This document shows positions 1,999 through 2,433 of a DNA stretch of 64,000 bases, one piece after another. The first letter of the stretch is position 1. Every line of letters begins with the position of its first letter. Below the pieces are notes generated by a model. That model was not told where the DNA came from, searched no databases, and was given only the letters and a program-made list of their open reading frames with translations. A program made the translations under genes and the position numbers. Source of the stretch: Escherichia coli. Lineage in GTDB: Bacteria > Pseudomonadota > Gammaproteobacteria > Enterobacterales > Enterobacteriaceae. The stretch lies in the NCBI RefSeq assembly GCF_024298765.1, contig NZ_CP101210.1; one strand, given 5' to 3'.

Positions 1999-2433
1999 AT
2001 GAGTAAGAAGAAAATTCCTTTTGAAAATGAAGAGTTCATTACTTACCGGGCATTACTTCTGAGTATTGACTTTGTTAAAAAACTGGTTATAGAAATGTCT
2101 GATGAAGATTTAAATAAGGTTAAGGAAAACTTTGACATAGCTATTCAGCAACGTAATGAGCGAAAGGAAAATATGAAAGCTATCAAATCACTCATGGATG
2201 AACATGGTATATCTCTGGAAGATTTTTATCGTGAATTTGGCAAAAAATCACAGGCAGGCAGAAAAAGTGTGTCAGGAGGGCATAAATACGAGTATGACGA
2301 TAACGGTAAAAGAATGTGCTGGAATGGGCAAGGACGTCGGCCTAAGGCCATAGCAGAGGCTATAAAAGCCGGAGGTTCTCTTGATGATTTTCTTATATCT
2401 CAGGAAGTATCATCTGGTCCTGATTATGAATAA
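1999..2433 (+). CDS. H-NS family nucleoid-associated protein (paralog, Hfp/H-NSB-like)
   Basis: C-terminus KRMCWNGQGRRPKAIAEAIKAGGSLDDFLI matches the H-NS DNA-binding motif (TWTGQGRTP...GKSLDDFLI); charged helical N-terminus; ATG at 1999 preceded by AT-rich promoter region. Confidence 0.8.
   Translation: MSKKKIPFENEEFITYRALLLSIDFVKKLVIEMSDEDLNKVKENFDIAIQQRNERKENMKAIKSLMDEHGISLEDFYREFGKKSQAGRKSVSGGHKYEYDDNGKRMCWNGQGRRPKAIAEAIKAGGSLDDFLISQEVSSGPDYE

Follow-up and report, generated by a model that had tools for sequence, protein, structure and literature searches.

The window analysed here is a stretch of 64,000 nucleotides from contig NZ_CP101210.1 of the Escherichia coli assembly GCF_024298765.1, and its subject is an H-NS-like gene located at 1999-2433 on the + strand. 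According to the listing of open reading frames (ORFs) in the window, the gene starts with ATG and encodes a protein of 144 amino acids (aa). In RefSeq, the same ORF of the avian pathogenic E. coli (APEC) O78:H4 strain E12049, the chromosome of which is 99.9% identical to the window, is annotated as WP_016244155.1, an "H-NS histone family protein". The GC content is 36.8% for the ORF and 38.4% for the surrounding AT-rich block (1100-5800). A tblastn search detected no second copy of the gene in the window, and the Rfam scan of the whole window gave no matches. The following layout of the protein is predicted from the Pfam matches and an AlphaFold2 (AF2) model:

Residues 11-21, 23-32, 35-68 and 73-83: helices that make up the oligomerisation domain
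Residues 85-92: linker
Residues 96-133: DNA-binding domain
Residues 136-144: disordered acidic tail, EVSSGPDYE

Judged by its sequence and predicted structure, the 144-aa protein is a member of the H-NS family, an assignment far beyond chance. Its architecture is complete: the N-terminal region contains two sites for oligomerisation, the linker is basic, and the C-terminal domain carries QGR, the AT-hook-like motif for the minor groove. Pfam recognised the C-terminal Histone_HNS domain (PF00816) at residues 96-133 with 45.4 bits against a cut-off of 25.6 (E=6.6e-12), and the Histone_HNS_N domain (PF22470) at residues 19-76 with 31.2 bits against a cut-off of 24.5 (E=2e-07). The motif CWNGQGRRP pairs with TWTGQGRTP of H-NS, W108-N-G-Q111-G112-R113-R-P115 being aligned with W109-T-G-Q112-G113-R114-T-P116; Q111-G112-R113 is intact, and W108, P115, and K96 are also kept in the alignment with the H-NS family. 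A phmmer search of the PDB sequences matched the DNA-binding domains of StpA (2lrx, E=5e-8) and H-NS (1hnr and 2l93), while the C-terminal structure of Ler (2lev) was a weak match of 19.9 bits.

The AF2 model has a mean pLDDT of 80, and its four N-terminal helices reach 85-96; they are followed by a disordered linker, by two strands and a helix with the motif loop (a beta-beta-alpha domain), and by the disordered tail. Its top Foldseek match in PDB was 2l93, the C-terminal domain of the Salmonella H-NS (probability 1.00, target-normalised TM 0.69, root-mean-square deviation 3.6 over 47 columns, E=0.012). In this search with the full model, the helical N-terminal domain gave no meaningful match and no H-NS N-domain structure was retrieved, so the fold assignment of this domain is based on the hidden Markov model and on the layout of the secondary structure.

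The distance from the well-known members of the family is large. Over its full length, the protein shares 28% identity with H-NS and 34% with StpA (both from MG1655), and 31-32% with Hfp of uropathogenic E. coli (UPEC) 536 (L007:31488-31889); these three references are 53-63% identical among themselves. The DNA-binding domain is 54-59% identical to its counterparts in the three, and the oligomerisation domain only 17-24% (19% for Hfp), as compared to 47-64% among the three themselves. Three indels add to this divergence: the N-terminus is extended by 12 aa, a deletion removes 11 aa from the long central helix, and the C-terminus has an acidic tail of 9-11 residues (9 in the window protein) ending with D-Y-E. 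In a 34-sequence alignment sampling the wider H-NS family, these indels are confined to the 144-aa protein and its close relatives. H-NS residues R12, R15, L26, L30, and L33 are aligned with D24, K27, L38, K42, and F45, respectively; R12, R15, L30, and L33 are critical for dimerisation or Hha binding in H-NS (PMC7544231). Since the equivalents of R12, L30, and L33 are replaced, the formation of heteromers with H-NS should not be presumed by analogy with Hfp. The second dimerisation site retains its hydrophobic pattern. The NCBIfam equivalog models for StpA (63.7 bits against a cut-off of 202) and H-NS (35.8 bits against 211) score so far below their thresholds that the protein is ruled out as an equivalog of either.

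These data suggest that the protein represents a separate, so far uncharacterised branch, outside the classifications of H-NS, StpA, Hfp, H-NST, Ler, HlpC, HlpP, and plasmid Hpp, with HlpC compared by its published description only; with it, a well-known type of protein gains a new, uncharacterised member. No paper on this H-NS branch was found in the literature. H-NS and StpA have the same domain architecture, the W-x-G-Q-G-R-x-P motif and the C-terminal SLDDFLI in common with the window protein, which is 28-34% identical to them and differs by the 12-aa extension, the 11-aa deletion, and the 9-aa acidic tail.

A sequence-only reading of this DNA had assigned the gene to the Hfp/H-NSB type. 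Hfp (H-NSB or H-NS2; known from UPEC 536 and enteroaggregative E. coli (EAEC) 042) is indeed similar in being a full-length, QGR-bearing H-NS family protein encoded on an AT-rich acquired chromosomal island of pathogenic E. coli. It consists of 134 aa, aligns collinearly with H-NS at 57.7% identity (PMC2814080), is encoded on serU/asnW (EARL-type) islands, and heteromerises with H-NS (PMC2814080, PMC7544231); its clade is delimited by >90% identity to Hfp (PMC7544231). The window protein, by its length, its N-terminal domain, its three indels, and its island, which is of another type than the serU/asnW islands, does not conform to this description, and membership in the Hfp/H-NSB clade is ruled out because of the low identity, the indels, and the different island type. 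The comparison with Hfp, StpA, and H-NS proposed in the sequence-only reading therefore speaks for the H-NS family in general and not for the Hfp type. Other parts of that description were borne out: the gene is an island-encoded H-NS paralog (Pfam matches, RefSeq annotation, and location on an island of the AlpA/ProQ type), its C-terminal DNA-binding motif is that of H-NS, its N-terminal oligomerisation region is divergent, and it lies within an AT-rich block about 2.4 kb upstream of a ClyA-like gene.

The best plasmid match is Sfx/HppX (IncX), which covers 93% of the query at about 34% identity. Sfx is likewise a divergent H-NS homologue of similar length encoded by a mobile element, and may likewise regulate in an element-specific way; it is encoded beside topB on a plasmid and has mostly an RGR motif and a proline-rich linker (PMC11796372). 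The window protein, on the contrary, is chromosomally encoded, has QGR and a short Gly/Ser-containing linker, and its inclusion in the Sfx/HppX clade is ruled out by chromosomal location, QGR, and the identity of about 34%. Ler, which is H-NS-like in the C-terminal domain only and acts as an anti-silencer (PMC7074111), is comparable in being island-encoded, in the H-NS-type DNA-binding domain and in an N-terminus too divergent for co-polymerisation with H-NS to be presumed. The N-terminal domain of the window protein nevertheless fits the H-NS_N model, similarity to Ler is low, and no genes of the enterocyte effacement locus (LEE) were found in the window, so we rejected Ler-type membership. 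HlpC, a sporadic chromosomal H-NS-like clade in some E. coli (Fitzgerald et al. 2020, PMC7544231), is similar in its mode of occurrence. It keeps R12, R15, L26, and L30, nearly invariant over five genera, and differs at position 33 (PMC7544231; accessions in Table S1 of that paper, e.g., EOV48679.1); the window protein, with D24, K27, L38, K42, and F45, is set apart from it by this description.

The branch is isolated. A HMMER search of 1.84 billion representative proteins yielded only 3 matches below 1e-30, all of them the protein's own cluster or its fragments, and the next full-length relatives appeared at E of about 1e-12 with 31-46% identity. In all but 2 of the 4172 plasmids encoding an H-NS homologue, identity to the 144-aa protein does not exceed about 36%. 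Among phages there were 6 weak matches, with at most 51% identity over partial stretches, and a PHROG match of unknown function; these are negligible, and a phage origin of the gene was rejected. The source names listed for the relatives are all E. coli, except for one "MULTISPECIES Enterobacteriaceae" entry. The family was found in 437 of 5426 complete E. coli genomes, and all 504 matching places are chromosomal.

Two allele types prevail. The 144-aa allele is present at 95% identity or more in about 205 complete genomes, and a 146-aa allele, 61% identical to it at the protein level, in about 120. In the assembly collection, an identical protein was indexed in 1185 blocks for the window allele, in 9389 for the major 144-aa allele, and in 4769 for the 146-aa allele. 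Some alleles, such as P0003, look like mosaics of the two types. In the O157:H7 strain 86-24, the 146-aa ORF is intact, RefSeq setting its start later. The acidic tail ending with DYE is conserved in both types. Upstream, about 110 bp before the start codon are common to the two types and the sequence beyond is unrelated; this segment presumably contains the gene's own promoter and 5' untranslated region, which would move together with the gene. The elements flanking the ORF are:

1890-1998, + strand: upstream segment of the H-NS-like gene, conserved between the allele types
2606-2624, + strand: hairpin resembling a terminator, with a T-run behind it, about 175 nt past the stop codon of the H-NS-like gene

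The sequence-only reading would have been refuted by a pseudogene in most carriers; instead, 323 of the 437 family-bearing complete genomes cover at least 80% of the ORF. Judged from these sequences, the gene is maintained, intact in most carriers and in thousands of assemblies, under a loose constraint.

The neighbouring features that are needed for the discussion below are:

53-601, + strand: 182-aa island-backbone protein (Pfam UCP030791; in RefSeq, "YagK/YfjJ domain-containing"), within a backbone segment duplicated at 27143-28603
620-1099, - strand: ProQ/FinO family protein, an intact 159-aa ORF annotated as frameshifted in RefSeq; the upstream neighbour conserved in the contexts of the 144-aa allele
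2850-3475, - strand: frameshifted remnant of a 189-aa hypothetical protein (hyp189), probably membrane-bound; the conserved downstream neighbour, intact in most other carriers
3518-4279, - strand: 5'-truncated anti-phage dGTPase gene, 253 aa; the HD domain is lost and HD_assoc alone remains
4222-4269, either strand: perfect 24+24 nt palindrome, GTCAACGCCACGATGTTTGACCGT followed by ACGGTCAAACATCGTGGCGTTGAC, where synteny with hlyE-less carriers ends
4271-4544, + strand: part of a serine-recombinase family gene, lacking the N-terminus and interrupted by an internal stop; 84-89% identity to recombinase genes of E. coli plasmids
4896-5783, + strand: hlyE/clyA variant, 295 aa (Pfam HlyE E=4e-111), 77% identical to the K-12 HlyE at the aa level

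In other carriers, the dGTPase is full-length (410 aa, with the HD domain and 365 bits on the PADLOC dGTPase model). Downstream of the major 144-aa allele, hyp189 and then the full-length dGTPase occur in all 10 non-redundant places listed; upstream, UCP030791 was called in 9 of these 10 and a ProQ-family ORF in 6. The H-NS-like gene and the hyp189/dGTPase pair are convergent and do not form an operon. No dGTPase adjoins the 146-aa allele, which is located near a Mrr-type restriction endonuclease and, in O157:H7, near the dnd genes. The island of strain E12049 is a large mosaic that starts beside yicL and ends at a tyrosine integrase, with an AlpA/UCP030791/ProQ backbone around the H-NS-like gene, and the same H-NS-like module occurs at other chromosomal sites in other strains. 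The gene appears to belong to the cargo of E. coli integrative islands of the AlpA/ProQ type. With ProQ/FinO as the usual upstream neighbour, these islands pair a homologue of a DNA silencer with a homologue of an RNA chaperone.

The hlyE variant starts 2463 bp after the stop codon of the H-NS-like gene, on the same strand and in the same AT-rich block. It reaches 519 bits on the NCBIfam equivalog model, against a cut-off of 590, and ends 8 residues earlier than the K-12 HlyE. This allele was detected in 20 of the 5426 complete genomes, always at 99.9% identity or more, mostly in avian isolates with some human ones and one from a dog; the whole 3.8-kb block from the H-NS-like gene to hlyE is present in 19. 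A SheA/HlyE homologue of avian E. coli was reportedly described by Reingold et al. in 1999. Where sampled carriers had the 144-aa allele without hlyE, homology to the window ends at about 4221, inside the dGTPase gene, i.e., at the palindrome, which looks like an inverted duplication left by an insertion or inversion event. The recombinase fragment and hlyE seem to have come as an inserted segment that truncated the dGTPase, an event that would be late, rare, and restricted to one island lineage. The ORFs on both sides of the palindrome start with the same peptide, STPRCLTVTVKHRGVD, one from each arm.

Elsewhere, the very H-NS-like allele of the window is accompanied by a full-length dGTPase and no hlyE (L039), by an hlyE split by an insertion sequence (IS) (L035), or by a deletion of hlyE (L036). 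The region upstream of hlyE (4545-4895) has 27.6% GC, and a promoter shared with the K-12 clyA was discarded, as the region is not alignable with the K-12 clyA promoter. The motif tCGATAAATT, said to have been identified as the H-NS high-affinity motif by Lang et al. in 2007, gave 58 matches against 62 expected; it is not enriched and therefore uninformative.

The role that we favour, giving it an about even chance of being correct, is that of an accessory nucleoid-associated protein of the H-NS family, a separate branch acting in trans on the AT-rich DNA of the island, probably via its own oligomers. Island- and plasmid-encoded H-NS homologues acting in trans are exemplified by Hfp (PMC2814080) and Sfx (PMC11796372; reviewed in PMC7074111). 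The protein would bind AT-rich DNA in the manner of H-NS and form filaments. Most likely, it would assemble mostly with itself, neither mixing freely with H-NS or StpA nor recruiting Hha, because its oligomerisation domain is only 17-24% identical to those of H-NS, StpA, and Hfp, lacks the equivalents of R12, L30, and L33, and has a central helix shorter by 11 residues. It may add silencing capacity for the AT-rich DNA of the island, with a "stealth" or buffering role like that of the plasmid Sfh or Sfx, and the hlyE promoter would be one among many possible targets, not a dedicated partner.

Several observations weigh against this role. Heteromers with H-NS are not precluded by low identity, as Sfx, divergent as it is, interacts with H-NS, StpA, and Hha (PMC11796372). 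Between the 144-aa and 146-aa alleles, the ratio of non-synonymous to synonymous substitution rates (dN/dS) is 0.45, with dS at 0.57; this applies to both halves of the gene and, for a nucleoid protein, is a weak constraint. Relative to the major 144-aa allele, that of the window has 5 non-synonymous changes (S7P, V8F, T31I, D53N, and Y107C) and 1 synonymous change, a pattern compatible with relaxed selection in the window lineage. About 112 of the 437 genomes possess only the C-terminal half of the gene. In addition, the scan for sigma-70 promoters upstream of the gene gave no + strand site before the start, the counts being at the level of shuffled sequences.

The main alternative to a silencer is a Ler-like antagonist, which would bind the same AT-rich sites without co-polymerising with H-NS, displace the H-NS filaments and so activate the island genes. 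We consider it unlikely, even though Ler (PMC7074111) shows that an antagonist can result when the DNA-binding domain is canonical and the N-terminal domain very divergent, and the acidic DYE tail, conserved in both allele types, does not occur in the silencers of the H-NS family. The N-terminal domain fits the H-NS_N model of Pfam, both oligomerisation sites are present in the predicted layout of four helices, Ler itself is a weak match (19.9 bits), and no activated target is evident. The other proposals connect the gene with its neighbours. Regulation dedicated to hyp189 and the anti-phage dGTPase, e.g., silencing of the defence genes until infection, could explain the constant order H-NS-like gene, hyp189, dGTPase in all the listed places of the major allele, with a dGTPase well supported by PADLOC, and the proximity of the 146-aa allele to the Mrr-type enzyme and the dnd genes. 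It is made quite improbable by the rearrangements in which an intact dGTPase, with or without hyp189, survives the removal of the H-NS-like gene (L041, L042), and by the window itself, where the H-NS-like gene is intact and both neighbours are pseudogenes; the convergent orientation and the lack of a dGTPase near the 146-aa allele point in the same direction.

The sequence-only reading took the position of the gene as a sign of coupling with the toxin gene, and its full form, in which an Hfp/H-NSB-like paralog joins H-NS in heteromers and tunes the silencing of a locally coupled clyA/hlyE-like gene, now seems very unlikely. Strand, shared AT-rich block, and the distance of 2.46 kb agree with it, as does the low GC upstream of hlyE, typical for an H-NS-type target; the clyA gene of K-12 is silenced by H-NS. 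For the heteromers, the preserved hydrophobic pattern of the second dimerisation site may be adduced, against which stand the low identity to Hfp, in particular of the N-terminal domain, and the replaced R12, L30, and L33. Local regulatory coupling to hlyE is not supported by the genomic comparison, because the adjacency is recent and rare: hlyE was found in 20 genomes and the family in 437, the junction lies inside the truncated dGTPase, and the same allele exists without hlyE or next to a deleted or IS-split one. Besides, two pseudogenes of the opposite strand lie between the two genes. At 27.6% GC, the hlyE promoter is a plausible target for any H-NS-type protein, the host H-NS equally, and a generic trans effect of the H-NS-like protein on this promoter is possible. 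It may also be asked whether the gene is a mere passenger in the window lineage, devoid of a current function and decaying like its neighbours. Both downstream neighbours are inactivated, the ProQ/FinO gene is frameshifted according to RefSeq, and the 5 non-synonymous changes against 1 synonymous change in the window allele and the genomes with the C-terminal half only are in line with such decay. The intact ORF, the exact protein in 1185 blocks of the collection, the dN/dS between the allele types, the conserved upstream segment and the confident AF2 model are not, and we regard a passenger status as rather improbable.

Returning to the accessory silencer that we favour, one may speculate further, with little confidence, that it constitutes an orthogonal silencing system: its filaments, unmixed with H-NS, StpA, and Hha, would be dedicated to the hotspot of defence and cargo genes on the islands (the dGTPase, the Mrr-type enzyme, dnd, and later hlyE), with the DYE tail as a regulatory or partner-binding handle. 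If this were true, phage or stress signals inactivating the H-NS-like protein would switch on the adjacent genes for defence or toxin without involvement of the H-NS regulon of the host. In a broader context, H-NS paralogs govern which acquired genes a strain can afford and when these are expressed, and about 8% of the complete genomes of E. coli possess the branch, with O157:H7 and the APEC O78-type island among its carriers. Its divergent oligomerisation domain offers a natural test for whether accessory silencers mix with H-NS or form separate filaments. For the toxin gene, the lesson is one of caution, as adjacency within one island lineage is no evidence of a regulatory pair.

Some features of the island are worth mentioning apart from the H-NS-like gene. 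A second copy of the backbone, comprising a UCP030791-type gene, a ProQ/FinO gene, and about 360 bp more, is located at 27143-28603 and is 86% identical to 53-1459. Both of its genes are frameshifted, and the copy stops short of the H-NS-like gene, the place of which is taken by a cluster of LacI, phosphotransferase system (PTS), and transketolase genes. This duplication suggests that two or more related elements have fused to form the large island. From 7023-14600 onward (by transfer from L001 and L003), the mosaic includes fecIRABCDE flanked by IS1, pgtPCBA and the PTS/transketolase cluster, which is probably the tkt1 island, as well as genes for an adhesin resembling YadA, a TonB-dependent receptor and an autotransporter; IS fragments are numerous. 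At about 52543-55243, the window has an additional IS66-type insertion that strain E12049 lacks.

In three other loci (L032:11234-14240, L041:9105-12111, and L042:8665-11656), the dGTPase gene and an IS3 remnant are followed by genes for a thymidylate-synthase-like protein, an aGPT-Pplase3/ADDT-domain protein, and an XRE/M78-peptidase regulator. Judging by its gene content, this set looks like a further defence or DNA-modification cassette in the same hotspot.

The C-terminal half of the H-NS-like gene also occurs in another combination: in about 110 complete E. coli genomes, it forms an in-frame fusion with the N-terminal portion of a transposase-like protein (Pfam HTH_28/HTH_32). An intact chimera of 246 aa, consisting of the helix-turn-helix (HTH) part, a linker, and the H-NS DNA-binding domain, is encoded at L025:1103-1843 (+ strand), with a full 144-aa gene in the same island. 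In EAEC 042 (L008:8371-9207) and AR_452 (L010:8399-9204), the annotation of the chimera consists of a frameshifted HTH gene and a short fragment of H-NS.

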